Shown here piece by piece: positions 1-9,480 of a stretch of 9,480 nt of DNA; the stretch's first letter is position 1; the number at the start of each line of letters is the position of its first letter. The DNA is taken from IMG/VR virus record IMGVR_UViG_2671180778_000012, positions 1 through 9,480 of that record; one strand, given 5' to 3'. The translations under genes and the position numbers were made by a program. The stretch comes from a virus. Lineage: Duplodnaviria; Heunggongvirae; Uroviricota; Caudoviricetes. A model generated the notes under the pieces. That model worked only from the letters and a program-made list of their open reading frames with translations, was not told where the DNA came from and ran no database searches.

Positions 1-717
1 ATGGATGATAACAATATATCGGTCAAACAATATATTATTTATTCGGTTATGAATGATTTAATTACTGGTGGGCGAGAATCTTCAGTTTTAAACGTTCCTG
101 TATCTTTATCCCCGAAAAACTCCACCATAGAGGCTATAAAACGCTTGATTGATGATATAAGAGATTATTTTTATAAATCAAAATATCCAACAAGAGAATT
201 TCTTTTGTGTTATGGTTTAGAATCAAGTGAAATCGAGCAATATCCTATTGAATTAGCTGCAAAAATGGATTCATGTGGTTTTTTAATATTTGATAGTAAA
301 CTATCTTGTCAGGTTGTCGATACTTTAAATTCAGCAGTTGCATTGTACCATGTCGGAATGCGTAATCACGCAGACAAACTTACTAGAGTTGGTGTTGAGT
401 TATTGCTTAATGATTTTTTTGAAGAAATTATATCGAACCATGAAAAAGATAAAAAAATAAAGGATGCTTTATCCTTATCACAGAAAGAAAAAGCGCGCAA
501 ACCAAGAAATCATTATTACAATGAAGTTATGCACGTAATTAAACTAACATGGGAAAAGTACCCTAAAGCCAGTAAAACAGGTTTATTGAACGAGCTTTCT
601 GTTTACTACCATGGGAAAGTAAGTAAAAACACGCTAGATAGATGGATTAAAGAATCAGGGGCACAACCACCAAAGCCTGATAAATACTCTTCGTTTGAGC
701 TTGTTCACCCCCAATAG
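1..717 (+). CDS. Hypothetical AT-rich protein (238 aa) with C-terminal helix-turn-helix-like segment; possible accessory/regulatory cargo
   Basis: Complete ATG..TAG ORF. Strongly AT-rich (first 60 nt about 23% GC) against about 50% GC for the rest of the window. C-terminal segment GLLNELSVYYHGKVSKNTLDRWIK resembles an HTH. No family recognised by eye. Confidence 0.6.
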   Translation: MDDNNISVKQYIIYSVMNDLITGGRESSVLNVPVSLSPKNSTIEAIKRLIDDIRDYFYKSKYPTREFLLCYGLESSEIEQYPIELAAKMDSCGFLIFDSKLSCQVVDTLNSAVALYHVGMRNHADKLTRVGVELLLNDFFEEIISNHEKDKKIKDALSLSQKEKARKPRNHYYNEVMHVIKLTWEKYPKASKTGLLNELSVYYHGKVSKNTLDRWIKESGAQPPKPDKYSSFELVHPQ

Positions 718-798
718 CTGGCTACGGTATTTTAATAGCTGGCTATTGAGGCTAAATAACTGGTAACAGCCCCACAGCAACTGGCTATTGGGCTAAAA
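714..798. repeat. Direct repeat array: CTGGCTA core at 718, 739, 781; 18-bp repeat CTGGCTATTG(A)GGCTAAA(A) at 739-756 and 781-798
   Basis: Read directly. Core copies are offset by 21 and 42 bp, i.e. whole numbers of helical turns. Array lies between the ORF1 stop and the AlpA-like gene. Confidence 0.75.
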
Positions 799-822
799 AC
801 AAAATACTCATTGATTGATATT

Positions 823-856
823 TATCACCGTTGTTACTTAGACGTACACGGTGATA
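823..856. promoter_or_regulatory. Inverted repeat TATCACCG-N18-CGGTGATA overlapping the RBS/start region of the AlpA-like gene; candidate operator
   Basis: Arms at 823-830 and 849-856 are exact reverse complements. Possible -35 TTGATA at 815-820 just upstream. No convincing -10, so promoter assignment is tentative. Confidence 0.4.
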
Positions 857-859
857 GAT

Positions 860-1069
860 ATGAATTTAAAGAAATCTGATTTATCAACTGACCGCCTTAC
901 ACGTGCTGAAGCTGCTGCCTACCTTGGCGTTAACAATCAAACACTGGCGAACTGGGCGTGTACTGGCAAGGTAAAAATCCCTTTCCATAAACTTGGTCGC
1001 AAAGTGCTGTATATGCGCACTGATCTCGATGCTTATCTTGCATCCACTCGCAGAACGCAGACGGTGTAA
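860..1069 (+). CDS. Excisionase-family HTH DNA-binding protein (AlpA/Xis/Vis-like), 69 aa
   Basis: Sequence LTRAEAAAYLGVNNQTLANWACTGKVKIPFHKLGRKVLYMRTDLDAYL fits the excisionase-family (AlpA/Xis-type) DNA-binding domain pattern. ATG at 860 is preferred over the in-frame GTG at 851. GGTGA lies 5 nt upstream of the ATG. Confidence 0.75.
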   Translation: MNLKKSDLSTDRLTRAEAAAYLGVNNQTLANWACTGKVKIPFHKLGRKVLYMRTDLDAYLASTRRTQTV

Positions 1070-1182
1070 GGGGGAGTGATGGCACATAAAACAAAGGCGA
1101 CCGGGGGCGGTCGCCAATGGATACACACTAAACTTGAACGCATCACCAACAATGCCACATTTGCGGCTGGTGGGCAATGTGA

Positions 1183-1371
1183 TCAGTCAGATTTGGTTCG
1201 TTCCAAGGTTTGCAACGAGAGCTTTTTCCTGTGCTCTTTAAGGAATTTCTCAAGAGCAAAAGCACATGGCGCGAATCTTTCTGATTCATGCTCTATCTTT
1301 CTGCGCCGTCTTTTCCGTGCCGGTGATAATGTTTTGGTCAATTCTTTATCGGTCATTGTGTTGTCCTGCAT
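1183..1371 (-). CDS. Small basic hypothetical protein (62 aa), uncertain
   Basis: ORF downstream of and co-oriented with the 1414..1719 gene. Charged, protein-like composition but no clear Shine-Dalgarno. Confidence 0.25.
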   Translation of the reverse strand: MQDNTMTDKELTKTLSPARKRRRRKIEHESERFAPCAFALEKFLKEHRKKLSLQTLERTKSD

Positions 1372-1413
1372 AGCAATGCGCCGTAATACCTTACACCACG
1401 GCGCTGATGGTGA

Positions 1414-1719
1414 TTACTCTGGTTCTTTGGTCTTGCGACGCTGGAGTTCTTCGCGTGCAACGGTGACAAGCTGCCCGATTTCTTCCGCTGCTTTGATGCC
1501 GATTTGTTCGACCTTAGCCAGGGCATCCAGTGACGACACAAGGGGATTTTCTCCGCTGCCTTCTGCTTGGCGGCGGGCTATTTCTCCGCGCATGGCGGTT
1601 ACGATAAATCCGGCATTGCTTTCGCCGTCCAGCTTAACGGATTCCATCCCTTGCATAACATCTAGTGGGACTCTGACAGTTGTCAGTTGTGATTTTGCGT
1701 TTTTGTTAGCCGTTGCCAT
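1414..1719 (-). CDS. Hypothetical 101-aa protein, possibly a ribbon-helix-helix-type DNA-binding regulator
   Basis: AGGAG Shine-Dalgarno 8 nt upstream of the ATG (plus-strand CTCCT at 1728-1732). About 40% of codons start with G, a strong coding signature. No Cys, E/A/K-rich. N-terminal SQLTTVRVPLDVMQGM resembles an RHH beta-strand plus helix; this fold assignment is inference. Confidence 0.65.
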   Translation of the reverse strand: MATANKNAKSQLTTVRVPLDVMQGMESVKLDGESNAGFIVTAMRGEIARRQAEGSGENPLVSSLDALAKVEQIGIKAAEEIGQLVTVAREELQRRKTKEPE

Positions 1720-1737
1720 TTCTGAAACTCCTAATCA

Positions 1738-1818
1738 TCGGTGTGTTTCAGTATACACAAAAAAAGAAATACAAAAAGCCTTGACGTGTGTTTCATGCGC
1801 TCATAACATGAAACACAC
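1738..1818. promoter_or_regulatory. Divergent promoter/operator region: 12-bp perfect inverted repeat GTGTGTTTCATG-N9-CATGAAACACAC (1786-1818), extra half-site GTGTGTTTCA (1741-1750), candidate sigma70 promoter (-35 TTGACG 1781-1786, -10 TAACAT 1804-1809)
   Basis: Palindrome and half-site copies read directly. Promoter hexamers have 17-bp spacing and overlap the palindrome. Region lies between the minus-strand gene start (1719) and the + strand small-ORF operon. Confidence 0.55.
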
Positions 1819-1916
1819 CGAAAGGATTGTTGAAATACAAAGAGCAACGCCCCGCAGTGCCGGAAACACATACGGGGCGTCTAACCACCAACGATAACGA
1901 GAGTATCGAGGCAGCT

Positions 1917-2120
1917 ATGAGAAATCATACCATACACCCGCAAGGGCGGGACTCGTACAACCTGAATAAATACATCTGGCGTTTTATCGCCCTGAGCACG
2001 GCACAACCGCGCGTGATTACCATTGAGGCCAGCAGCGAACAGGAAGCACGCCAGCAATCCCCGGCTGGCTGCGTGATGGTATTCGCCGCCCGTATTCGTC
2101 AGGGGGGGGGCCATGCCTGA
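1917..2120 (+). CDS. Small hypothetical protein (67 aa); faint resemblance to P4-type Icd-like proteins is a guess
   Basis: ATG at 1917 preceded by GAGG 5 nt upstream. The annotated upstream start at 1827 is TTG and unlikely. Ends ...FAARIRQGGGHA; the Gly codons are the G9 tract. Confidence 0.4.
   Translation: MRNHTIHPQGRDSYNLNKYIWRFIALSTAQPRVITIEASSEQEARQQSPAGCVMVFAARIRQGGGHA
2102..2110. repeat. G9 homopolymer tract at the junction of two small ORFs
   Basis: Nine consecutive G at 2102-2110, immediately before the ATG at 2113 and inside the last codons of the 1917..2120 ORF. Confidence 0.95.
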
Positions 2121-2433
2121 TATGTCAAATTACCAGTACCTGATTAATCCGCATTTTAACTGTGAGCATGATATTGCTAAAAAGGTTTATTCCGCTGCGG
2201 ATGGGGCTACTGACAATATATCAATGGCTGTTGCGTCAATTGGTAGCCTGATGTGGCATGCGTCAGAAAATGAGGACTATGACGAAAAGGCCATGCGCAT
2301 TGATATGGGTAATATTGGTTTGTTACTGGCAATGCTTGGACATTTTGATATTTCGTTACGGTGCACCATTGAAAATGCCACAGATGCATTAAATGCTATA
2401 AAGAAAGCGAATACTGATTCAAATCGGGGATAA
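2113..2433 (+). CDS. Hypothetical protein (106 aa)
   Basis: ATG at 2113 overlaps the upstream stop (ATGCCTGA). Alternative in-frame ATG at 2122. No family recognised. Confidence 0.5.
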   Translation: MPDMSNYQYLINPHFNCEHDIAKKVYSAADGATDNISMAVASIGSLMWHASENEDYDEKAMRIDMGNIGLLLAMLGHFDISLRCTIENATDALNAIKKANTDSNRG

Positions 2434-2439
2434 ATAATC

Positions 2440-2739
2440 ATGAGAACATATTTATCTGGCTTGACTGCCAGCGGTTATGCACACCCCCAAATTATCCCCG
2501 GCGCTATTTATCTGGATAAGAACGGTAACAGAGTAACGGTAAAAGAACTGATGTTTGACCGTGTGTATTTTATTCGTGATGGCTATTCATTTCATAGTTC
2601 GCTGAACGTGGAGATCTTTATTAGCAGATTCAGGCGGGAAATCCCGCTTTCCAGAAAAAACCATGTGTCACGTGTGAATGTGGATAAAAAACTACAGGAA
2701 CTGAAAAACATGATTGCCGCGTGGAGAGAGCAGAAATGA
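2440..2739 (+). CDS. Hypothetical protein (99 aa)
   Basis: ATG at 2440 with GGGGA 9 nt upstream. Stop TGA overlaps the primase ATG (ATGA at 2736-2739), suggesting translational coupling. Confidence 0.5.
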   Translation: MRTYLSGLTASGYAHPQIIPGAIYLDKNGNRVTVKELMFDRVYFIRDGYSFHSSLNVEIFISRFRREIPLSRKNHVSRVNVDKKLQELKNMIAAWREQK

Positions 2740-4553
2740 AAAAAGCGCCAAATTTAAAACACCAGCCGCGTGACAAAATGACGGAAGTCATCATTTTTGC
2801 GGGTAGTGATGCGTGGGCACATGCGAAGCAGTGGCAGGAACAGGACGGGCGACTGGCTGGCGATAACGTGCCACCTGTCTGGCTTGGAGAGCAACAACTT
2901 GCCGAACTGGACAACCTGCAAATCGTACCGGACGGACGCTATCGCGTGCGTCTCTATCAGGCGGGGTTATTGCGTCCGGGGCTTGTTAATACCATCGGGC
3001 AGAAACTGGCAGTGGCAGGTGTCAGGGATGCTGATTATTACCCTGAAGGAATGCACAGCCAGAAACGGGAGAACTGGCGCGAATATCTGGAACGTGAACG
3101 GGCAGAGCAGGCGGAAAAGAAAAAGGTAGTTGAACTGCCTGTAAAGAAAAAAGAGCGGGTAAAAGACGATAACGCGTCATCACTGGCGCTTAACCAGATG
3201 GGAGCAAGTCAACGCGGCGAAGTTCTCCTGGCACATTATGGCGGTGAACTGGCGATTCATGCTGACTCTGACACTGTTCACCATTACAACGGCGTTGTAT
3301 GGGAGCCAGTACAGGATAAAGAATTACAGCGAGCTATGGCACAGATTTTCATTGATGCGGAGATCAGCTATTCGCAGAACGCCATTAAATCGGCGGTCGA
3401 TACCATGAAGTTAAGTTTGCCTGTAATGGGGAATACAGCCCGTAACCTGATTGGATTCAGTAACGGGGTATTTGATACCAGAACAGGTAATTTTCGGGAG
3501 CATAACAAAAACGACTGGTTGTTAATTGCCAGTGAATTACCTTTCAGCCCACCAGCAGAGGGGGAAACGCTGGCAACACATGCGCCGAATTTCTGGAAGT
3601 GGTTACGCCGTTCGGTGGCTGAGAATGACCGCAAGGCGGATCGCGTACTGGCTGCATTATTCATGGTGCTGGCGAACCGGTACGACTGGCAGTTATTCAT
3701 TGAGGTAACAGGTCCAGGGGGAAGTGGTAAAAGCGTGATGGCGGAGATTTGCACCATGCTGGCGGGTAAGGCCAACACAGTATCGGCAAGCATGAAGGCG
3801 CTGGAAGATGCAAGGGAACGCGCGTTAGTGGTTGGCTTTTCGCTGATTATCATGCCGGATATGACCCGCTACGCTGGTGATGGGGCAGGGATTAAGGCTA
3901 TTACAGGCGGTGACAAGGTGGCAATTGACCCGAAACACAAAGCCCCCTACTCAACGCGTATTCCGGCAGTAGTGCTGGCGGTTAACAATAACGCCATGTC
4001 ATTCAGTGACCGCAGCGGGGGGATCTCACGTCGTCGGGTGATATTCAATTTTTCGGAAGTTGTACCGGAGAACGAACGTGATCCAATGCTGGCGGAAAAA
4101 ATAGAAGGTGAGCTGGCGGTAGTGATTCGCCATCTGCTTACACGGTTTGCTGACCAGGACGAAGCCAGACGCCTGTTATATGAGCAGCAGAAATCTGAAG
4201 AAGCACTGGCGATAAAGCGAGAGGGGGATTCGCTGGTGGACTTCTGCGGCTATCTCATGGCGTCGGTAATGTGTGATGGCCTGTTAGTGGGTAATGCTGA
4301 AATTGTGCCATTCAGCCCACGCAGGTATCTCTATCATGCCTATCTGGCTTATATGAGGGCACATGGGTTTGGTAAACCTGTAACACTGACGCGCTTCGGT
4401 AAAGATATGCCGGGGGCAATGGCGGAATATGGCAGGGAGTATATGAAACGGAAAACGAAGCACGGTTTGCGTTCAAACGTGACACTGACGGAGGAATCAG
4501 AAGACTGGATGCCATCATGTGTATCGGTCACTAATGACGATAGCAAAAATTAA
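2736..4553 (+). CDS. P4 alpha-type phage/plasmid primase-helicase (D5_N / primase C-terminal region plus SF3 P-loop NTPase)
   Basis: Walker A GPGGSGKS. Motifs NGVFDTRTG and RRRVIFNFSE are typical of the P4-family primase C-terminal / D5 helicase region. ATG at 2736 preferred over GTG at 2721 (GGAGAGAG 5 nt upstream). The N-terminal ~250 aa carry no motif I recognise. Confidence 0.85.
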   Translation: MKKAPNLKHQPRDKMTEVIIFAGSDAWAHAKQWQEQDGRLAGDNVPPVWLGEQQLAELDNLQIVPDGRYRVRLYQAGLLRPGLVNTIGQKLAVAGVRDADYYPEGMHSQKRENWREYLERERAEQAEKKKVVELPVKKKERVKDDNASSLALNQMGASQRGEVLLAHYGGELAIHADSDTVHHYNGVVWEPVQDKELQRAMAQIFIDAEISYSQNAIKSAVDTMKLSLPVMGNTARNLIGFSNGVFDTRTGNFREHNKNDWLLIASELPFSPPAEGETLATHAPNFWKWLRRSVAENDRKADRVLAALFMVLANRYDWQLFIEVTGPGGSGKSVMAEICTMLAGKANTVSASMKALEDARERALVVGFSLIIMPDMTRYAGDGAGIKAITGGDKVAIDPKHKAPYSTRIPAVVLAVNNNAMSFSDRSGGISRRRVIFNFSEVVPENERDPMLAEKIEGELAVVIRHLLTRFADQDEARRLLYEQQKSEEALAIKREGDSLVDFCGYLMASVMCDGLLVGNAEIVPFSPRRYLYHAYLAYMRAHGFGKPVTLTRFGKDMPGAMAEYGREYMKRKTKHGLRSNVTLTEESEDWMPSCVSVTNDDSKN

Positions 4554-4566
4554 ACTTATGGAATAA

Positions 4567-4795
4567 CTGTTCACCACTGTTCACCCTGTCATAAATATCT
4601 TTTATATCAGTATATTATAGGGTGAACAGTTATTTATGAACTGTTCACCAAACTATTCACTGTTCACCTTTTTGATTGTTTATTGAGCTTCAAGGGTGAA
4701 CAGTGGTGAACAGTTGGTGAATAGTTTTTGTGAAACTGTTCACCCCTTAACATTATGAATTAAAAGAGAAAATATCAAAAGGTGAACAGGTGAAG
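4567..4795. repeat. Iteron array, putative replication origin: 9-bp CTGTTCACC / GGTGAACAG in 9 perfect and 2 degenerate copies, flanking AT-rich segments
   Basis: Forward copies at 4567, 4577, 4641, 4660, 4736; reverse copies at 4621, 4695, 4705, 4781; degenerate copies at 4652 and 4716. Tandem pairs are 10 bp apart. AT-rich 4591-4620 is flanked by inverted copies. Array begins 14 bp after the primase stop. Confidence 0.65.
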
Positions 4796-4925
4796 GGTTA
4801 AAACGCAAAAATTTTAATTTACTGCTGTGAGATAAAGCCTATGACAGCGAAGCACACCAAAACAACAGGCGGGGAATGATGATCCGTACGGGGATAACAT
4901 ACCGTTTTAAGCAACGAGTAACAGA

Positions 4926-4948
4926 AGCCGGAGCAATCCGGCTTTTTT
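4926..4948 (+). terminator. Intrinsic terminator-like hairpin AGCCGGA-GCAA-TCCGGCT followed by a T run
   Basis: 7-bp perfect stem, GNRA-type GCAA loop, T run to 4948. Confidence 0.55.
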
Positions 4949-4950
4949 AT

Positions 4951-5022
4951 GGGTCCTCCCGGTGTAGTGACCTGCCACGGGGCGGGAACGGCGCGGAAAA
5001 AGGCTGGTTTTTGCATTTTCAT
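4951..5022 (+). repeat. Conserved 72-bp non-coding element, copy A (second copy at 7487-7558)
   Basis: Hand alignment to 7487-7558 gives 66 of 72 identical positions. Both copies start 2 nt after a terminator T run. Confidence 0.8.
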
Positions 5023-5209
5023 GGCGGCGGCAGCATGTGTGATAATTTATTGATAATTAAAAGTTATTTCTGTTTTCACCTGTACAATATTTTTTTCTCC
5101 CTGTCATTAGACCAGTTTGCAATTAATTGAAATATATAAATAAATCTGTTTTTCACCTGCCAGGTGGAGTTGCCTGTGTCAAAACGTGTTCAGATGGCGG
5201 GATATTTAT

Positions 5210-5232
5210 GCCGGATTTTCTCCGGCTTTTTT
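5210..5232 (+). terminator. Intrinsic terminator-like hairpin GCCGGA-TTTTC-TCCGGC followed by T6
   Basis: 6-bp stem and T6 read directly. Stem sequence matches the core of the 4926 hairpin. Confidence 0.5.
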
Positions 5233-5334
5233 GTGTCTGAATCTCATTAATCTGTTTTTATGATAGAAATATGTTTATCTACCACTTTTATCGATCAATA
5301 ATGTGCGCAGTTTAGTCAGTAAGAGGAAGTTACT

Positions 5335-5544
5335 GTGAGTTGTATTAATGACCTGAACACGGGCGATATCAGGGGTGGTTCCGTTCATCTGGATGCGCAG
5401 ACCGTTATGCGCCTTAAGCAGTACAGGATCGACCATATAAATCATCATCCTGACCAACCATTACCAGGTGTGGCGCAGATTGTCAGACATGCCGTAAACA
5501 CCTGGCTTAATCAGAATGGTTTTGCATCGGTGGGGGAACAATGA
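5335..5544 (+). CDS. Small hypothetical protein (69 aa), possibly ribbon-helix-helix-like, translationally coupled to the protease-capsid gene
   Basis: GTG start with AAGAGGAAG 5 nt upstream. Stop overlaps the next ATG (ATGA at 5541-5544). SVHLDAQTVMRLKQY resembles an RHH strand-helix; fold assignment is inference. Confidence 0.5.
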   Translation: MSCINDLNTGDIRGGSVHLDAQTVMRLKQYRIDHINHHPDQPLPGVAQIVRHAVNTWLNQNGFASVGEQ

Positions 5545-7454
5545 ATCGCTGGTACACCATTAAGGCGGCGGATGTTCGCGGAGCGGCGGATATATCTATC
5601 TATGAGGAGATTGGCGGCTTCGGTGTTACTGCAAAGCAGTTCGCGGAAGACCTGAAAGCCCTTGGCGATGTTTCACATATCAATCTGAGGATCCATTCAC
5701 CAGGTGGTGATGTGTTTGAAGGCATCGCCATCTATAACCTGCTACGGAATCATCCGGCAGACATTACGGTTTATATCGATGGTGTTGCGGCTTCAATGGC
5801 TTCGGTGGTCGCAATGGCTGGCGATCGTGTTGTGATGCCGGAAAACGCCATGATGATGATACATAAGCCGTGGGGTATCTCTGGCGGAAATGCTGGTGAT
5901 ATGCGTGATTATGCTGATTTGCTGGATAAGGTGGAAACCGTGTTAGTCCCTGCTTATGCCAGAAAAACGGGCAAATCAGCACAGGAAATTACCGCCATGC
6001 TGGAAGATGAAACCTGGATGGACGGGAAAGAATGCCTTAAGCACGGTTTTGCTGATGAATTGTTGCCATCCGTCAGAGCAATGGCGCGAATTGAATCGAA
6101 GCGCACAGGAGATTTTTTACATATGCCGGAAACCATTAAAGGAATGATTACACCGCCACAGGGAGCGGCAAATATTGCTGGTAATGAACAGAAACGCATC
6201 AATGGAATAAGTGAAGTGTTTAGCCTGTTCGGCAGTCGTTACGACGGGATCAAAATGGCGTGTCTGGAAGATGCATCATGTACACCGGAAATGGCCCGTG
6301 AAAAGCTGTTGAACGAGCTGGGGCGCGAGTCCACGCCATCCAATAAAAATACCCCGCCTCATATCTATGCCGGAAACGGAAACATAACAGGTGATGCAAT
6401 TCGTCAGGGGCTTTATTCCCGTCTTGGGTATGAACGGCCTGAACGAGGCAACCCTTACGCGATGATGAGTCTTTTTGAAATGGCCCAGGCATCACTGGTT
6501 GATCGTGGTATCACTGTGAGCGGTTTTATTAATCGCTCGCAGGTTGTTAATGCGGCTTTTACACACAGCAGCAGTGATTTTTCTCATATTCTGGCTGGTG
6601 GGGCTGAAAAATCTGTACTGAAAGGCTGGCAGGACAGCGGCGAAACGTTCCAGAAATGGACGCGTACCGGTTCGCTTTCAAACTTTCATGAAGCAAAGCG
6701 CGTTGGTCTGAATGGTTTTTCAAAGCTGGATAAAGTACCGGAAGGTGCGGAATATAAATACATCACCACCAGCGATAAAGGTGTACCTATTGCGCTGGCC
6801 ACGTACGGGAATATATTTTCCGTTACCCGTCAGGCCATTATCAACGATGACCTGACCCAGTTAACTACAATCCCCATGGCGATGGGACGCGCAGCTGCCA
6901 GAACAGTTGGCAATCTGGTTTATCTCCTGTTAACCAGCAACGGCAAGTTTACGGATGGTAAAGCGTTATTCCATGCCGATCATAAAAATCTTATTGCGAA
7001 GGATATGGACATGGAGGGGCTTAACGAAGCCCGTAAGCTGATGCGCCTCCAGGAAGACGCTAACGGCGATTCGCTGAATATTACCCCTGCATTTGTCCTG
7101 GTCCCCGCCGCGCTGGAGTCTGCCGCACATCGCGCCATTCTGTCATCGTCATCACTCTTTCCGGTTGATGGCGTGGGCACTATCAATCAGAACCCCGGCA
7201 TCATTAACGTGGTGAAAGATATGGCGGAGGTAATCGTTGAGCCACGTCTTGATAAAGCCAATAACAAGGAGTGGTATGTGGCAGCGGCGAAGGGTATGGA
7301 CACGATAGAGGTCGCTTATCTTGATGGTATTGATACGCCATATCTTGAGGAGCAGGAGGGCTTTACTGTTGATGGCGTCGCCTGGAAGGTGCGCATAGAT
7401 GCAGGTGTCGCGGCCCTCGACTATCGCGGATTACTGAAATCGAGTGGAGCATGA
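5541..7454 (+). CDS. ClpP-like (S14) prohead maturation protease fused to HK97-fold major capsid protein (637 aa)
   Basis: N-terminal ~190 aa has ClpP-type motifs (GVAASMASVVAMAG with active-site Ser context; MIHKPWG with His). C-terminal ~400 aa has the length and composition of an HK97/Mu gpT-like major head protein. GGGGGA 3 nt upstream of the ATG. Confidence 0.8.
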   Translation: MNRWYTIKAADVRGAADISIYEEIGGFGVTAKQFAEDLKALGDVSHINLRIHSPGGDVFEGIAIYNLLRNHPADITVYIDGVAASMASVVAMAGDRVVMPENAMMMIHKPWGISGGNAGDMRDYADLLDKVETVLVPAYARKTGKSAQEITAMLEDETWMDGKECLKHGFADELLPSVRAMARIESKRTGDFLHMPETIKGMITPPQGAANIAGNEQKRINGISEVFSLFGSRYDGIKMACLEDASCTPEMAREKLLNELGRESTPSNKNTPPHIYAGNGNITGDAIRQGLYSRLGYERPERGNPYAMMSLFEMAQASLVDRGITVSGFINRSQVVNAAFTHSSSDFSHILAGGAEKSVLKGWQDSGETFQKWTRTGSLSNFHEAKRVGLNGFSKLDKVPEGAEYKYITTSDKGVPIALATYGNIFSVTRQAIINDDLTQLTTIPMAMGRAAARTVGNLVYLLLTSNGKFTDGKALFHADHKNLIAKDMDMEGLNEARKLMRLQEDANGDSLNITPAFVLVPAALESAAHRAILSSSSLFPVDGVGTINQNPGIINVVKDMAEVIVEPRLDKANNKEWYVAAAKGMDTIEVAYLDGIDTPYLEEQEGFTVDGVAWKVRIDAGVAALDYRGLLKSSGA

Positions 7455-7461
7455 CAACAAG

Positions 7462-7484
7462 GGCGGCGATAGCCGCCTTTTTTT
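7462..7484 (+). terminator. Intrinsic terminator GGCGGC-GATA-GCCGCC followed by T7, 8 nt after the capsid stop
   Basis: Perfect 6-bp GC stem, 4-nt loop, seven T. Confidence 0.7.
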
Positions 7485-7486
7485 AC

Positions 7487-7558
7487 GGGTCCTCCCGGTG
7501 GGGTGGTCTGCCACGGGGCGGGAGCGGCGCGGAAAAAGGCTAGTTTTTGCATTTTCAT
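7487..7558 (+). repeat. Conserved 72-bp non-coding element, copy B
   Basis: 66 of 72 identity with 4951-5022. Lies 154 bp upstream of the Nu1-like gene. Confidence 0.8.
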
Positions 7559-7711
7559 TCGTCATCATCATCTTTCTATGATATTGAATTTTAAGTGTTT
7601 TTATTTTTGGTATGTTAATTTTGCTTGTTTTATGCTCAACATATAGCGCATTTTTTGACCTCTTCTGAAAGTTGTTCGCAAGATGCATGTTTAAAACATT
7701 CTGGAGCGGGT

Positions 7712-8197
7712 ATGGATCGAGAACTGAAAAATCTGATGCTGAACATTAATCAACTGGCGGCGATAGCGGGAATATGTCGTCAGACTGCGGCGGCAAGGCT
7801 GAAAAACATCCAGCCAGCCGGAGGGCATGACAAGCTAAAACTCTATCGGGTGACTGACATTCTGACCTGTTTTCTTGATCTTCCCGTTCCGGCATCACTG
7901 GAAGAAATGGAGCCACATGACCGTAAGGCCTGGTATCAGTCCGAACGTGAGCGCCTCAAGTTCGAACAGGAAACGGCGCAACTCATACCCGCCGATGATG
8001 TGCGAAAAGAGATGGCTATATGGGGGGAAATCGTAAGCGAGGAACTGGCAAAACTCCCCAATATTCTGGCACGTGATGCCGGGCTTAAACCGATGGCAGT
8101 AAACAGAGTGCAGTCAATTATTGACGATTTGCGTAATCAGATTATCAGCCGGATGGTAAAAAATGACGTAGTGAATGAGGTCGCAAAACAGGCATGA
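7712..8197 (+). CDS. Lambda Nu1-like small terminase subunit homologue (TerS / packaging-redirection type), 161 aa
   Basis: N-terminal HTH INQLAAIAGICRQTAAARLKN parallels lambda Nu1 KKQLADIFGASIRTIQNW, recalled from memory. ATG at 7712 with GGAG 5 nt upstream. The upstream TTG at 7625 is unlikely to be the start. Confidence 0.7.
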   Translation: MDRELKNLMLNINQLAAIAGICRQTAAARLKNIQPAGGHDKLKLYRVTDILTCFLDLPVPASLEEMEPHDRKAWYQSERERLKFEQETAQLIPADDVRKEMAIWGEIVSEELAKLPNILARDAGLKPMAVNRVQSIIDDLRNQIISRMVKNDVVNEVAKQA

Positions 8198-8481
8198 TAA
8201 TGACCGAATCTGAAATACTGCGATTAATCCGCTGTGCTGGTGGAATCAGCCAGTTGGCTGACGAACAGGCCGCGCAGCCGGATACAGTCACCGCTGAAAA
8301 TTACGCGCGTGTGGTGGCTGAGGTGATGCGCCGTGACGGTATTGAGCTTAACGGCGTGGATATGCGCAACATACGAACTAGAGTTCTTGAGTTGCTGGCA
8401 TACCGTCGCCGTTCTCAACAACGGAGGGAGAGCGCGAAAAATACTTACCAGTGGAAGAAGCCGGAACGGTTGCAGCGGTAG
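8194..8481 (+). CDS. Hypothetical protein (95 aa)
   Basis: ATG overlaps the TerS stop (ATGA at 8194-8197). No family recognised. Too short to be a large terminase. Confidence 0.45.
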   Translation: MIMTESEILRLIRCAGGISQLADEQAAQPDTVTAENYARVVAEVMRRDGIELNGVDMRNIRTRVLELLAYRRRSQQRRESAKNTYQWKKPERLQR

Positions 8482-8818
8482 ATTCCTGATATTCAGGAAA
8501 ACCACGAATCTGTGGGGTTTACTGGCGCGGTTACGGCGGTGACACGCACCGAGGCAGAACAATTACCGTAGGTTAAAGCGACAGTATTCACACCAAAGGC
8601 AGAAATTAGCGGTTAACGTAACTGACTGATATTTTCGGGAACAGCCAACGGCTGAGGCCGGAGCTATAAAAATAGCTTTGGGTACAGTCCTCAGTTTTGA
8701 GGGATGTTAACCAACTGAATAATAAGCAAACCTCAAAATTGAGTTTTGTATCTGCCTGAGTTATTTCTGTGCTAACTTGCTGATATTCCCGATAGCGCAA
8801 AAGTGCGTTGGCTGGTGG

Positions 8819-8990
8819 GTGAGTTGCAGATCTGCAACTCGACCATGAAATTACGGAAACTACCCGTAGTTTGGGTAGTAAGAGTAACACCCAGATTTTG
8901 GGGCTTACTCGCGATACCCAAATAAAGGGTATCGGTGTAAGAAATATCGTTTCTCATATGTGAGCACCGAGGGCGGAATTCCGCCTTCGG
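8819..8990. other. Cluster of palindromes/hairpins in non-coding DNA: 20-bp perfect palindrome 8821-8840, hairpins 8859-8879 and 8912-8934, near-palindrome 8967-8990
   Basis: All four read directly. 8821-8840 is GAGTTGCAGATCTGCAACTC. Hairpins are ACTACCC-N7-GGGTAGT and CGATACCC-N7-GGGTATCG. 8967-8990 is CCGAgGGCGGAATTCCGCCtTCGG. No long ORF with a coding signature covers this region. Confidence 0.6.
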
Positions 8991-9177
8991 TTACTTATTG
9001 TGCCCATGCACAGGGAGGGGCGGGTCAAATCTCTGTACCCTGACGTCTTCCGGACTGCCAGCCCCATCGTTTTTTTACGCCCGCGAAAAATAAAAATTGT
9101 TTGTATGTGAGTATTGTAGCCAGCAAAAGCTCTTTCTTTAGTGGCTTATTGTTTCTAATAGATTTTGGGAGGTAGAA

Positions 9178-9480
9178 ATGGGAGGCCCAGCGAAAGCTGG
9201 GCCGAGCTTGTTACGCTGTCATTACTTCAGCATGATAACTAAAGCTATACATACTAGCACTACGGCTATTGGGCATAGACCTAAATTGCCAAGTGCTGCG
9301 ATTAAACCTGTAACGGCAATCACACGTGCAGACAGCAGGTCTGAGCCCTTTCTTAAAGTATCCATTGATACCTCCGTCAGGGTTTTTGCCGGTCTCTTGG
9401 AGAGTTGGGGGCAAAAGTTCAGACCCGTAGCACTTTCTTGTTCGCAGGTGAACGGCTGCTACGACCCAACTGTTCTGTAG
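9178..9480 (+). CDS. Hypothetical protein (100 aa), uncertain
   Basis: GGGAGG 5 nt upstream of the ATG. ORF ends with TAG exactly at the window end. G-first codon fraction about 29%. Unusual amino-acid composition and a perfect hairpin right after the ATG leave coding status open. Confidence 0.4.
   Translation: MGGPAKAGPSLLRCHYFSMITKAIHTSTTAIGHRPKLPSAAIKPVTAITRADSRSEPFLKVSIDTSVRVFAGLLESWGQKFRPVALSCSQVNGCYDPTVL

Follow-up and report, generated by a model that had tools for sequence, protein, structure and literature searches.

Two features of a Caudoviricetes sequence raise the question of how its replication region is organised: a cluster of short repeats behind a gene annotated as a DNA primase, and a pair of similar-looking motifs 300–400 bp further downstream. 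An earlier note, made from the sequence alone, had read the first as an iteron origin of replication and the second as possible further binding sites of the same initiator. The window we analysed is a 9,480-nucleotide stretch (positions 1–9,480 of IMG/VR record IMGVR_UViG_2671180778_000012), and coordinates below refer to it unless P4 is named. We consider it very probable that the window is a phage-inducible chromosomal island (PICI) of the EcCICFT073/EcCI224 kind, which holds two separate elements in this interval, the island's own origin (4554–4840) and a copy of a helper-phage cos site (4951–5183), the latter lying outside the origin.

An iteron cluster behind the rep gene

The origin region comprises the whole intergenic region from the rep stop to the ATG of the next gene (4554–4840, 67% A+T), and forms an imperfect 240-bp palindrome; read in a near-identical relative, the block 4564–4800 shares 69.5% identity with its own reverse complement. 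The repeat CTGTTCACC is present in ten exact copies in the whole window, compared to 0.07 expected (none of 200 shuffles reached ten); nine lie within 4567–4789 and the tenth at 3274, within the rep open-reading frame. The rep stop codon ends at 4553 and the first repeat starts at 4567, which confirms the 14 bp previously noted between them. The cluster itself is real, however the eleven copies counted in it earlier were not recovered, as 4567–4797 contains nine exact and three degenerate iterons.

From left to right, the cluster consists of two tandem iterons CTGTTCACC on the plus strand (4567 and 4577, 10 bp apart, together 4567–4585), a first A+T-rich spacer (4586–4620, 80% A+T), an inverted iteron on the minus strand (4621–4629), and three plus-strand iterons (4641–4668), exact at 4641 and 4660 with the degenerate CTATTCACT at 4653–4661 (two mismatches). 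These are followed by three tandem minus-strand iterons (4695–4724) spaced 10 and 11 bp apart, exact at 4695 and 4705 with CTATTCACC as the third (4716–4724, one mismatch), a plus-strand iteron (4736–4744), a second A+T-rich spacer (4745–4780, 81% A+T), and a minus-strand iteron at 4781 with an overlapping degenerate copy, CCCTTCACC (4789–4797, minus strand, two mismatches; the pair spans 4781–4797). The copies do therefore occur in both orientations and in tandem, with measured spacings of 10, 10 and 11 bp, and inverted copies do surround A+T-rich DNA, the two spacers reaching 80–81% A+T vs. 53% in the whole window; both are candidate unwinding segments. Nor is the repeat a motif dispersed throughout the genome, the observation that had been named as counting against an origin: the complete island in strain Ecol_224 contains no second cluster, and only two copies of the octamer TGTTCACC are found beyond the cluster in 25 kb of the Ecol_224 locus. 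A tandem-repeat search recovered the iteron arrays alone, and no P4 type-2 repeats. The lone match in an Rfam scan of the window was a spurious plant microRNA over the inverted iterons (23.8 bits vs. a threshold of 70), so no RNA family explains the region.

The octamer links this cluster to satellite phage P4 (NC_001609), where ori and crr both carry TGTTCACC under the annotation 'ori type 1 repeat'; we take it to be the sequence bound by P4 alpha, on the basis of the GenBank annotation and the name of PDB entry 1KA8. A full-text literature search for the octamer returned primer lists only. Positions 4686–4812 align iteron for iteron with P4 ori 9300–9425 and with both crr units: the minus-strand triplet at 4695–4724 has the arrangement of P4 ori 9310–9338, the iteron at 4736–4744 aligns with P4 ori 9353–9360, and the final pair corresponds to the iteron pair that closes P4 ori and crr. 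The first spacer also aligns with the A+T-rich spacer of P4 ori and the crr units.

The upstream gene (2721–4553, plus strand), annotated 'DNA primase family protein', encodes a replication initiator of 610 aa with the Pfam domains D5_N, DUF5906 and Pox_D5. Residues 1–150, with no assigned function, are followed by D5_N and an SF3 helicase core, and the C-terminal part forms a winged-helix origin-binding domain (residues 502–598, nt 4224–4514), which matches the P4 origin-binding domain, PDB 1KA8, with an E-value of 1.8e-24. The protein shares 50.7% identity with P4 alpha over residues 150–600, 48% with the Pri-Rep of EcCICFT073 and 74.5% with the initiator of the Klebsiella element vB_KppS-Ant. 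The 'primase' label, repeated in the earlier note, has no counterpart among the domains recognised in the gene product, in which family, BLASTP and PDB searches and alignment detected no primase domain. No Pfam, NCBIfam or PDB entry matched one, the zinc finger and EGYATA block of P4 alpha are missing from the alignment, and BLASTP against P4 alpha residues 1–330 gave only E=3. A single-sequence AlphaFold model of the N-terminal 166 residues (pLDDT 62) has a generic alpha/beta fold, for which Foldseek found nothing in the PDB at E≤0.001.

Repeats of this kind recur behind related initiators. In 67 of 83 related loci, at least three exact copies of one octamer are present within 350 bp past the stop codon, with almost none elsewhere in the locus; in vB_KppS-Ant, eight exact copies of TGTTCACC follow directly past the initiator stop codon. 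Repeats past the rep gene of the Pasteurella element Pmp7 were not found in the deposited record. That a rep gene here directly precedes its iteron-type origin, as had been proposed, is thus supported by the P4 octamer, the P4-type binding domain, the recurrence in the 83 loci and the EcCICFT073 precedent described below.

The repeats of the 83 loci fall into four classes, TTCACC (64 loci), TCCACC (9), TCTACC (7) and TCCGCC (3), and class co-varies with residues 578–584 of the binding domain. The TTCACC class has G at residue 582 in 98% of cases, the TCCACC class always (100%) has N, and both the TCTACC and the TCCGCC class have R. An Escherichia ruysiae locus, L017, encodes a protein near-identical to the window's initiator except in segment 578–584, and its repeat is TGTCTACC. 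Serratia phage Scapp, whose iterons differ in sequence (TTGCACTTTT), was excluded from the class analysis because a tblastn search with the origin-binding domain (E≤1e-3) did not match its C-terminal region. This co-variation suggests that residues 578–584 may form a small specificity segment of the binding domain, which could be of use in predicting or engineering replicons that are compatible. Natural origins also vary at iteron position 2, TATTCACC and TCTTCACC being common and TTTTCACC found in three loci.

A probable helper-phage packaging site downstream of the origin

Between the origin and the downstream motifs lies the remnant of a small ORF and ssb (4841–4925, plus strand), left by a deletion of ~590 bp with its junction in a 12-bp overlap at 4851–4862; in an undeleted relative (L008), the next gene begins at the equivalent of 4841. 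A hairpin with the sequence GCCGG-AGCAAT-CCGGC and a trailing T run (4926–4949, plus strand) lies 3' of the ssb remnant. It was missed by the hairpin scan and was read by eye from the sequence, and is kept after ssb in the island L095.

The block that follows (4951–5183, plus strand), which we designate cosA, is 92–96% identical to the cos regions of lambdoid phages and prophages of the cdtI/Tritos/HannyBb type; in prophage MS6198 this region sits between the lysis genes and terS. The block would represent a copied helper-phage packaging site, with a cosN cut at ~4980 and a cosB segment, within which lies an IHF-like site. The putative cohesive-end sequence GGGCGGGAACGG occupies 4980–4991 (plus strand), and the cdtI and Tritos genome records, as deposited, start at 4980. 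It resembles the left end of lambda, GGGCGGCGACCT followed by CGCGG. An IHF-consensus match, TATCAATAAATTA (5043–5055, minus strand), is the window's only one and is invariant in the phage alignment. Homology to the phages stops a few bases beyond 5176–5178 (plus strand), the position aligned with the phage terS ATG, which is GTG here.

Both downstream motifs, CTGTTTTCACCTG (5070–5082) and CTGTTTTTCACCTG (5146–5159), are present where they had been reported, as is the palindrome CACCTGCCAGGTG (5154–5166), and both lie within this block. The 10-mer they have in common, TTTTCACCTG, occurs exactly twice in the window vs. 0.03 expected, at 5073–5082 and 5150–5159 (both plus strand), and these putative small-terminase binding elements form cosB repeats 1 and 2. 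The phage versions of the motifs (CTCTTTTCACCTG; CTGATTTTCACCTGCCAGATG) have only TTTTCACCTG in common, with no CTGTT part and no perfect palindrome. The cos block is also present in island L095, whose iterons are TGTCTACC; both TTTTCACCTG copies are unchanged there, yet the second motif reads TTTGTTTTTCACCTGCCAGATG. The CTGTT and the perfect palindrome are thus not conserved even among islands. The TTTTCACCTG pair is best read as small-terminase binding repeats, a reading we infer solely from position and repetition, and the two would most likely be bound by the small terminase of the helper phage, a DUF1441 protein. Phages conserve the cos block so strongly over its entire length that motif-level conservation of TTTTCACCTG is inseparable from this background.

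This placement argues against the suggestion that the motifs serve as secondary initiator-binding or autoregulatory sites: they are inside a phage-derived 233-bp cos block, such phages lack the initiator, and the TTTTCACCTG cores are kept beside a TGTCTACC origin in L095. Low-affinity sites for the island initiator, whether secondary, autoregulatory or for looping, are nevertheless the likeliest of the alternatives, although we regard this reading as very unlikely. TTCACC, the invariant part of the iteron, is found in both motifs, and since iteron position 2 is variable, with TTTTCACC a minor variant in three origins, weak binding of the initiator to TTTTCACC is conceivable. Substitutions in the island relative to the phages also create CTGTT upstream of both motifs and perfect the palindrome, and P4 alpha bridges ori and crr. 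However, the motifs were inherited from the cos regions of phages without this initiator and persist in an island with TGTCTACC iterons, their octamer register is broken by two to three extra T residues, and ~4.6 TTCACC hexamers are expected in the window by chance. Island and phages differ at ~13 positions in 200 bp, and the three to four substitutions near the motifs are close to the ~2 expected. On our preferred reading, the likeness of TTTTCACCTG to the iteron is coincidental.

One iteron cluster, P4 and the EcCICFT073 precedent

The island replicon resembles that of P4 in its octamer TGTTCACC, in an initiator which shares the helicase core and origin-binding domain, in a repeat cluster which begins directly past the initiator stop codon, and in the architecture of its units, where tandem inverted repeats come first, then one repeat in the opposite orientation, and a 35-bp A+T-rich spacer leads to a repeat pair. 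By analogy, the C-terminal winged-helix domain of the initiator, homologous to that of P4 alpha, would bind the 12 TGTTCACC-type repeats, which form inverted groups around the two 35-bp A+T-rich spacers; assembly of the initiator on the repeats may then melt a spacer, and the same protein could subsequently serve as replicative helicase. All three steps, binding, melting and helicase action, are modelled on P4 alpha and on a plasmid test of EcCICFT073. The island differs from P4 in that its initiator is without the zinc finger and DnaG-type primase domain of P4 alpha, and in the number of clusters: P4 needs both ori and crr, 4.5 kb apart, whereas the island, in its whole length and also in circular form, has one compact 230-bp cluster. 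The P4 mechanism is therefore not transferable one-to-one.

The same difference bears on whether the cluster is a crr-like cis enhancer, with initiation elsewhere. In P4, the iteron region directly past the alpha stop is crr, with ori 4.5 kb away, and the window cluster shares synteny with crr, to whose units it also aligns. Against this, neither the complete island nor the circular 10.79-kb form has a second cluster, the alignment of the cluster's right half with P4 ori is at least as good, and the pri-ori fragment of EcCICFT073 alone supported replication, maintaining a temperature-sensitive plasmid in which deletion of rep or ori reduced maintenance (PMC6092414). An enhancer role with initiation elsewhere thus appears highly improbable, and we retain the cluster as the origin.

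The two elements could also be combined, with helper-derived cosB repeats adapted into weak initiator sites (CTGTTTTCACC and CTGTTTTTCACC, arising via island-specific substitutions, with any base tolerated at octamer position 2 in natural origins) and an origin-bound initiator looping to cos 300–400 bp away. If true, such looping would be a miniature of the P4 ori–crr bridge and could tie replication to packaging or protect cos from being cleaved too early, but we hold it to be very unlikely. The least probable of the readings weighed here makes the downstream motifs promoter or operator elements of the capsid/packaging operon from 5335: they do lie upstream of the 5335–7454 genes in an A+T-rich stretch, and the palindrome at 5154–5166 is operator-like, but a sigma-70 scan of 4500–5600 returned no promoter-like site (3.1 expected) and so lends no support, a terminator-like hairpin with a T run (5210–5235, plus strand) stands between motifs and operon, and the phage counterpart, where the palindrome is imperfect, sits between the lysis genes and terS.

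Island identity, second cos site and probable helper phages

An island ~98% identical to the window, differing at the right end, is catalogued as PICI EcCI224, an entry in a supplementary table of the paper on Gram-negative PICIs (Fillol-Salom et al. 2018, PMC6092414); the complete island in strain Ecol_224 is 10.6 kb. Comparison of the island map with that of EcCICFT073 shows the features of a Gram-negative PICI of this type: a unidirectional int – alpA – ... – pri/rep order in about 10–15 kb without lysis or tail genes, an origin directly 3' of rep with iteron sets on both sides of A+T-rich DNA, and helper-phage cos sequence with two cosN copies. The full capsid and packaging set of a cf-PICI, including portal and head–tail connectors, is lacking, as island annotation and family scans show nothing of it beyond a protease-capsid fusion and a small terminase. 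The same sources contain no psu, delta, sid or epsilon, the genes which the P4-like satellite definition of de Sousa and Rocha (2021) requires besides int, alpA and alpha; outside the replicon too the island, unlike P4, has no sid, psu or delta. A close relative with a different integrase, 99.5% identical over 4400–5400, is deposited as a circular 10.79-kb record, which shows excision and circularisation of the related island and is not proof of replication.

EcCICFT073 shares the gene order int, AlpA-like HTH, YlcI, Icd-like, DUF4222, rep, ori, and its repeat groups, there with TGTCTACC, are likewise laid out around A+T-rich DNA. It also carries two cos sites, as does the island (PMC6092414; PMC6739421). 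The island differs in its repeat (TGTTCACC vs. TGTCTACC), with binding-domain residues 578–584 differing accordingly, in the loss of ssb through the deletion, and in having a small-terminase homologue of its own besides a protease-capsid fusion, whereas EcCICFT073 has lambda-type capsid and decoration genes and Rpp. The cosB regions of EcCICFT073 are reported to be unlike those of the phage (PMC6739421), whilst one island cos retains a phage-type cosB. Compared with lambda cos, the island site has a similar cohesive-end sequence, and the stretch from the putative cut to the start of terS likewise contains short direct repeats and an IHF-consensus site, but its cosB sequence is unrelated, its cognate small terminase is a DUF1441 protein rather than Nu1, and the terS gene behind cosA has been lost. 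The SaPI origins of Staphylococcus aureus, from a Gram-positive host, are unrelated in both initiator and repeat sequences.

The capsid/packaging operon starts at 5335 and its genes occupy 5335–7454; its small ORF at 5335–5544 has no similarity to the equally placed ORF of EcCICFT073. A second cos site, cos2, follows at 7479–7711 (plus strand), with a cosN part (7479–7558) ~92% identical to that of cosA and a different cosB part, and shares ~74% DNA identity with the cos–terS region of mEp460-, phi458- and PhiR40-type phages. Directly downstream, 7712–8197 (plus strand) encodes the island's own small-terminase homologue (DUF1441/phrog_141), which resembles the TerS of cdtI in its C-terminal half only. 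As a candidate Rpp this DUF1441 protein was rejected: no solved structure, Rpp proteins included, matches its sequence, and it is the phrog_141 small-terminase homologue.

From cos, TerS and capsid homology we infer the types of helper phage. The cos copy would allow cdtI-type lambdoid phages to cut and package concatemeric island DNA, and the cos assignment predicts mobilisation by cdtI/Tritos-type phages via cosA and by mEp460-type phages via cos2 and the island's own small terminase. The locus is ordinary, another case of a known kind of island, now correctly annotated, and does not overturn current understanding. It does provide a direct link between the Gram-negative PICI origin and the P4 alpha–iteron system, studied for many years, so that research on PICI replication can draw on P4 biochemistry and on the 1KA8 structure. 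It also corrects the annotation of a 630-bp 'intergenic' stretch, which holds an origin and a helper-type cos site, with a deletion scar between them, and ends in a terminator. This stretch is present in about 110 complete E. coli genomes, and the cos block alone, in prophages, in a further thousand or more.

Initiator and origin

The octamer CTGTTCACC occurs ten times in the window against 0.07 expected, with nine copies concentrated within 4567-4789, 3' of the gene for the 610-aa initiator (2721-4553, plus strand). Together with three degenerate copies (4653, 4716 and 4789) this amounts to 12 sites, so that the repeat cluster described in the earlier note is real, though its count of eleven copies is not. 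Tandem iterons are phased at 10-11 bp, much as had been read, and A+T accounts for 80-81% of both long spacers (4586-4620 and 4745-4780). Compared with its own reverse complement, the segment 4564-4800 (read in a near-identical relative) shares 69.5% identity. The octamer is not a dispersed motif: the complete island contains no second cluster, and the surrounding 25 kb only two other copies.

In satellite phage P4 (NC_001609), TGTTCACC is annotated as the 'ori type 1 repeat', with six copies in ori and ten (five exact) in crr, which lies directly 3' of the alpha gene; alpha reportedly binds this octamer. The window protein shares 50.7% identity with alpha over residues 150-600, and between residues 502 and 598 it matches 1KA8, the solved structure of the P4 origin-binding domain (E = 1.8e-24). 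On alignment, each iteron in window 4686-4812 has its counterpart in P4 ori (9300-9425) and in both crr units, the common pattern being three tandem repeats in inverted orientation, a single opposed repeat, a ~35-bp A+T-rich spacer and a terminal pair, whilst the left part of the cluster (4556-4640) aligns as an inverted version of the same unit. P4 divides its repeats between ori and crr, whereas the island, in both its complete and circular forms, has one compact cluster.

An experimental precedent is EcCICFT073, a phage-inducible chromosomal island (PICI) with the same gene order, an initiator 48% identical to that of the window and an origin of the same layout, but with TGTCTACC as its repeat unit. 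An EcCICFT073 pri-ori plasmid was maintained at the restrictive temperature, and deletion of rep or ori lowered its maintenance (Fillol-Salom et al., PMC6092414). As this experiment was performed on a homologue of the same layout, it supports the origin reading and places the element among a described kind; homology, architecture and the co-variation of repeat and protein bear the reading out as well.

In P4 alpha, a DnaG-type primase at the N-terminus is followed by an SF3 helicase and, at the C-terminus, a winged helix (PMC2777425). Unlike alpha, the window initiator lacks the zinc finger and the EGYATA block in its first 150 residues, as judged by alignment. Although annotated as a 'DNA primase family protein', it has no detectable primase domain in residues 1-150 (window 2721-3170): this region showed no similarity to the alpha N-terminus and no match among the family models searched or to any solved structure in the PDB. 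A single-sequence model (pLDDT 62) gave a generic alpha/beta fold, for which a structure search returned no significant match. EcCICFT073 Pri-Rep shares this conserved N-terminus. Primers for island replication may come from host DnaG or from an unrecognised activity.

Co-variation of repeat and binding domain

A scan of one genome per species yielded 80 loci with relatives of the initiator, spanning Raoultella, Klebsiella, Pectobacterium, Serratia, Yersinia, Xenorhabdus, Photorhabdus and others. Analysed jointly with the window, P4, EcCICFT073 and vB_KppS-Ant, 83 loci were evaluable, and in 67 of these a single octamer occurred at least three times without mismatch in the 350 bp 3' of the stop codon; in the others the copies were divided among close variants. 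The rest of each ~6-kb locus held 0-2 copies.

The repeats fell into four core classes, which co-vary with a short segment of the binding domain, residues 578-584: position 582 holds G in 98% of the 64 TTCACC loci, N in all nine TCCACC loci, and R in the TCTACC (seven loci) and TCCGCC (three loci) classes, associations that are inflated by relatedness between the sequences. A locus from E. ruysiae (L017) argues that the link between repeat and segment is real and modular, in that its protein has a domain nearly identical to that of the window except at residues 578-584, and its repeat is TGTCTACC. From its location after the helices, the segment is probably the beta-hairpin wing; on these comparisons, it may act as a simple specificity determinant.

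Downstream motifs and the two cos sites

The stretch separating the origin from the capsid operon is a patchwork. A small open-reading frame and ssb follow the origin in UTME-8, strain 488 and EcCICFT073, all close relatives; at window 4841-4925 a ~590-bp deletion has removed both, leaving a 12-codon stub, and the junction falls in a 12-bp overlap (4851-4862). Next comes a hairpin and its T run, at 4926-4949.

The next segment, 4951-5183, has ~92% identity matches in more than 1,000 E. coli genomes, under or beside 'DUF1441 family protein' genes. Its equivalent in strain MS6198 belongs to a lambdoid prophage and is flanked by the lysis genes on one side and a DUF1441 gene on the other, 3' of which are the large terminase, portal and protease-capsid fusion genes. 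Phages HannyBb, Tritos and cdtI match the segment at 92-94% identity, the deposited genomes of Tritos and cdtI begin exactly at window 4980 (GGGCGGGAGCGT then CGCGG, compared with GGGCGGCGACCT then CGCGG at the lambda left end), and the phage terS ATG aligns at 5176, just beyond which homology stops. The segment is therefore a phage cos region, with a putative cosN at ~4980 and cosB extending to 5175, as read from these alignments. The sole IHF-consensus match in the whole window (5043-5055) falls within this block.

The motifs at 5070-5082 and 5146-5159 and the palindrome at 5154-5166 are present as described, but the suggestion that the motifs are secondary initiator-binding or autoregulatory sites is not supported: both lie within cosB and belong to the helper-phage cos. 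Their phage counterparts are CTCTTTTCACCTGTACA and CTGATTTTCACCTGCCAGATG, which leaves TTTTCACCTG as the common unit; the window has exactly two copies of it (0.03 expected). Island-specific substitutions create the 'CTGTT' likeness to the iteron and the perfect palindrome. Decisive here is the island of strain 488, where an EcCICFT073-type origin with repeats TGTCTACC and TATCTACC sits beside this cos block, in which the two TTTTCACCTG copies are present and the palindrome is in imperfect form; it is the packaging module, then, that the motifs accompany, and not the specificity of the initiator. The R elements of lambda offer an analogy, from which we infer that the helper's DUF1441 small terminase could bind at the TTTTCACCTG copies. 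A 13/14 direct repeat, ATAAATCTGTTTTT (5140-5153) and ATTAATCTGTTTTT (5246-5259), 106 bp apart and with its second copy outside the phage-derived block, is probably due to chance.

A second copy of the cosN segment (7479-7558) is followed by a cosB unlike the first and by the island's own small-terminase homologue (7712-8197, DUF1441/phrog_141). This cos-terS unit (7479-8197) resembles those of mEp460-, phi458- and PhiR40-type phages (~74% DNA and 66-71% protein identity), and likeness to the cdtI TerS is limited to the C-terminal half of the homologue. EcCICFT073 also has two functional cos sites, whose cosB regions are not phage-like and are recognised by an Rpp-TerS complex (PMC6092414; PMC6739421), whereas here one cos has retained a cosB of phage type and the other is accompanied by a terminase subunit of its own. 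With the first cos belonging to the cdtI/Tritos type, two groups of helper phage may be open to the island; alternatively, its own TerS may redirect packaging.

The island and its relatives

The window is most of a ~10.6-kb E. coli chromosomal island. Strain Ecol_224 is 100% identical over 4400-5400, and its island carries int, DUF6387, an HTH regulator, YlcI, an Icd-like gene, a hypothetical, DUF4222 and the 'DNA primase family protein', then, after a long gap, the ClpP-protease/major-capsid fusion, the DUF1441 protein and a hypothetical. Fillol-Salom et al. 2018 (PMC6092414) catalogue that island (CP018948.1 1961620-1972242) as PICI 'EcCI224' in their supplementary table. The window is a close variant of it (~98% identical), differing at the right end beyond ~9096. 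A closely related island of 10,790 bp, with 99.5% identity over 4400-5400 and a different integrase, is deposited as a circular 'plasmid' (NZ_CP148328.1); this is an excised form, possibly a replicating one. Between its capsid gene and terS there is an additional fragment of a tail-assembly gene.

The window's capsid fusion (5541-7454) shares 57% identity with head protein gp05 of phage cdtI and, like capsid homologues in other PICIs, may redirect capsid assembly. A plus-strand 69-aa open-reading frame (5335-5544; phrog_4934, E = 1.8e-33) overlaps the start of the capsid gene; in its place RefSeq gives a minus-strand 57-aa frame (~5275-5448), probably spurious.

The window itself has a right end unlike that of Ecol_224 and contains no TPP riboswitch match. 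In Ecol_224 the thiM TPP riboswitch contains the att core AGAAATACCCGTAT. At the right end of that island (L001 16598-16732) island DNA has replaced the 5' half of the riboswitch, which brings the Rfam TPP score down to 33.3 bits (threshold 54.3); thiM regulation in this strain may therefore be altered.
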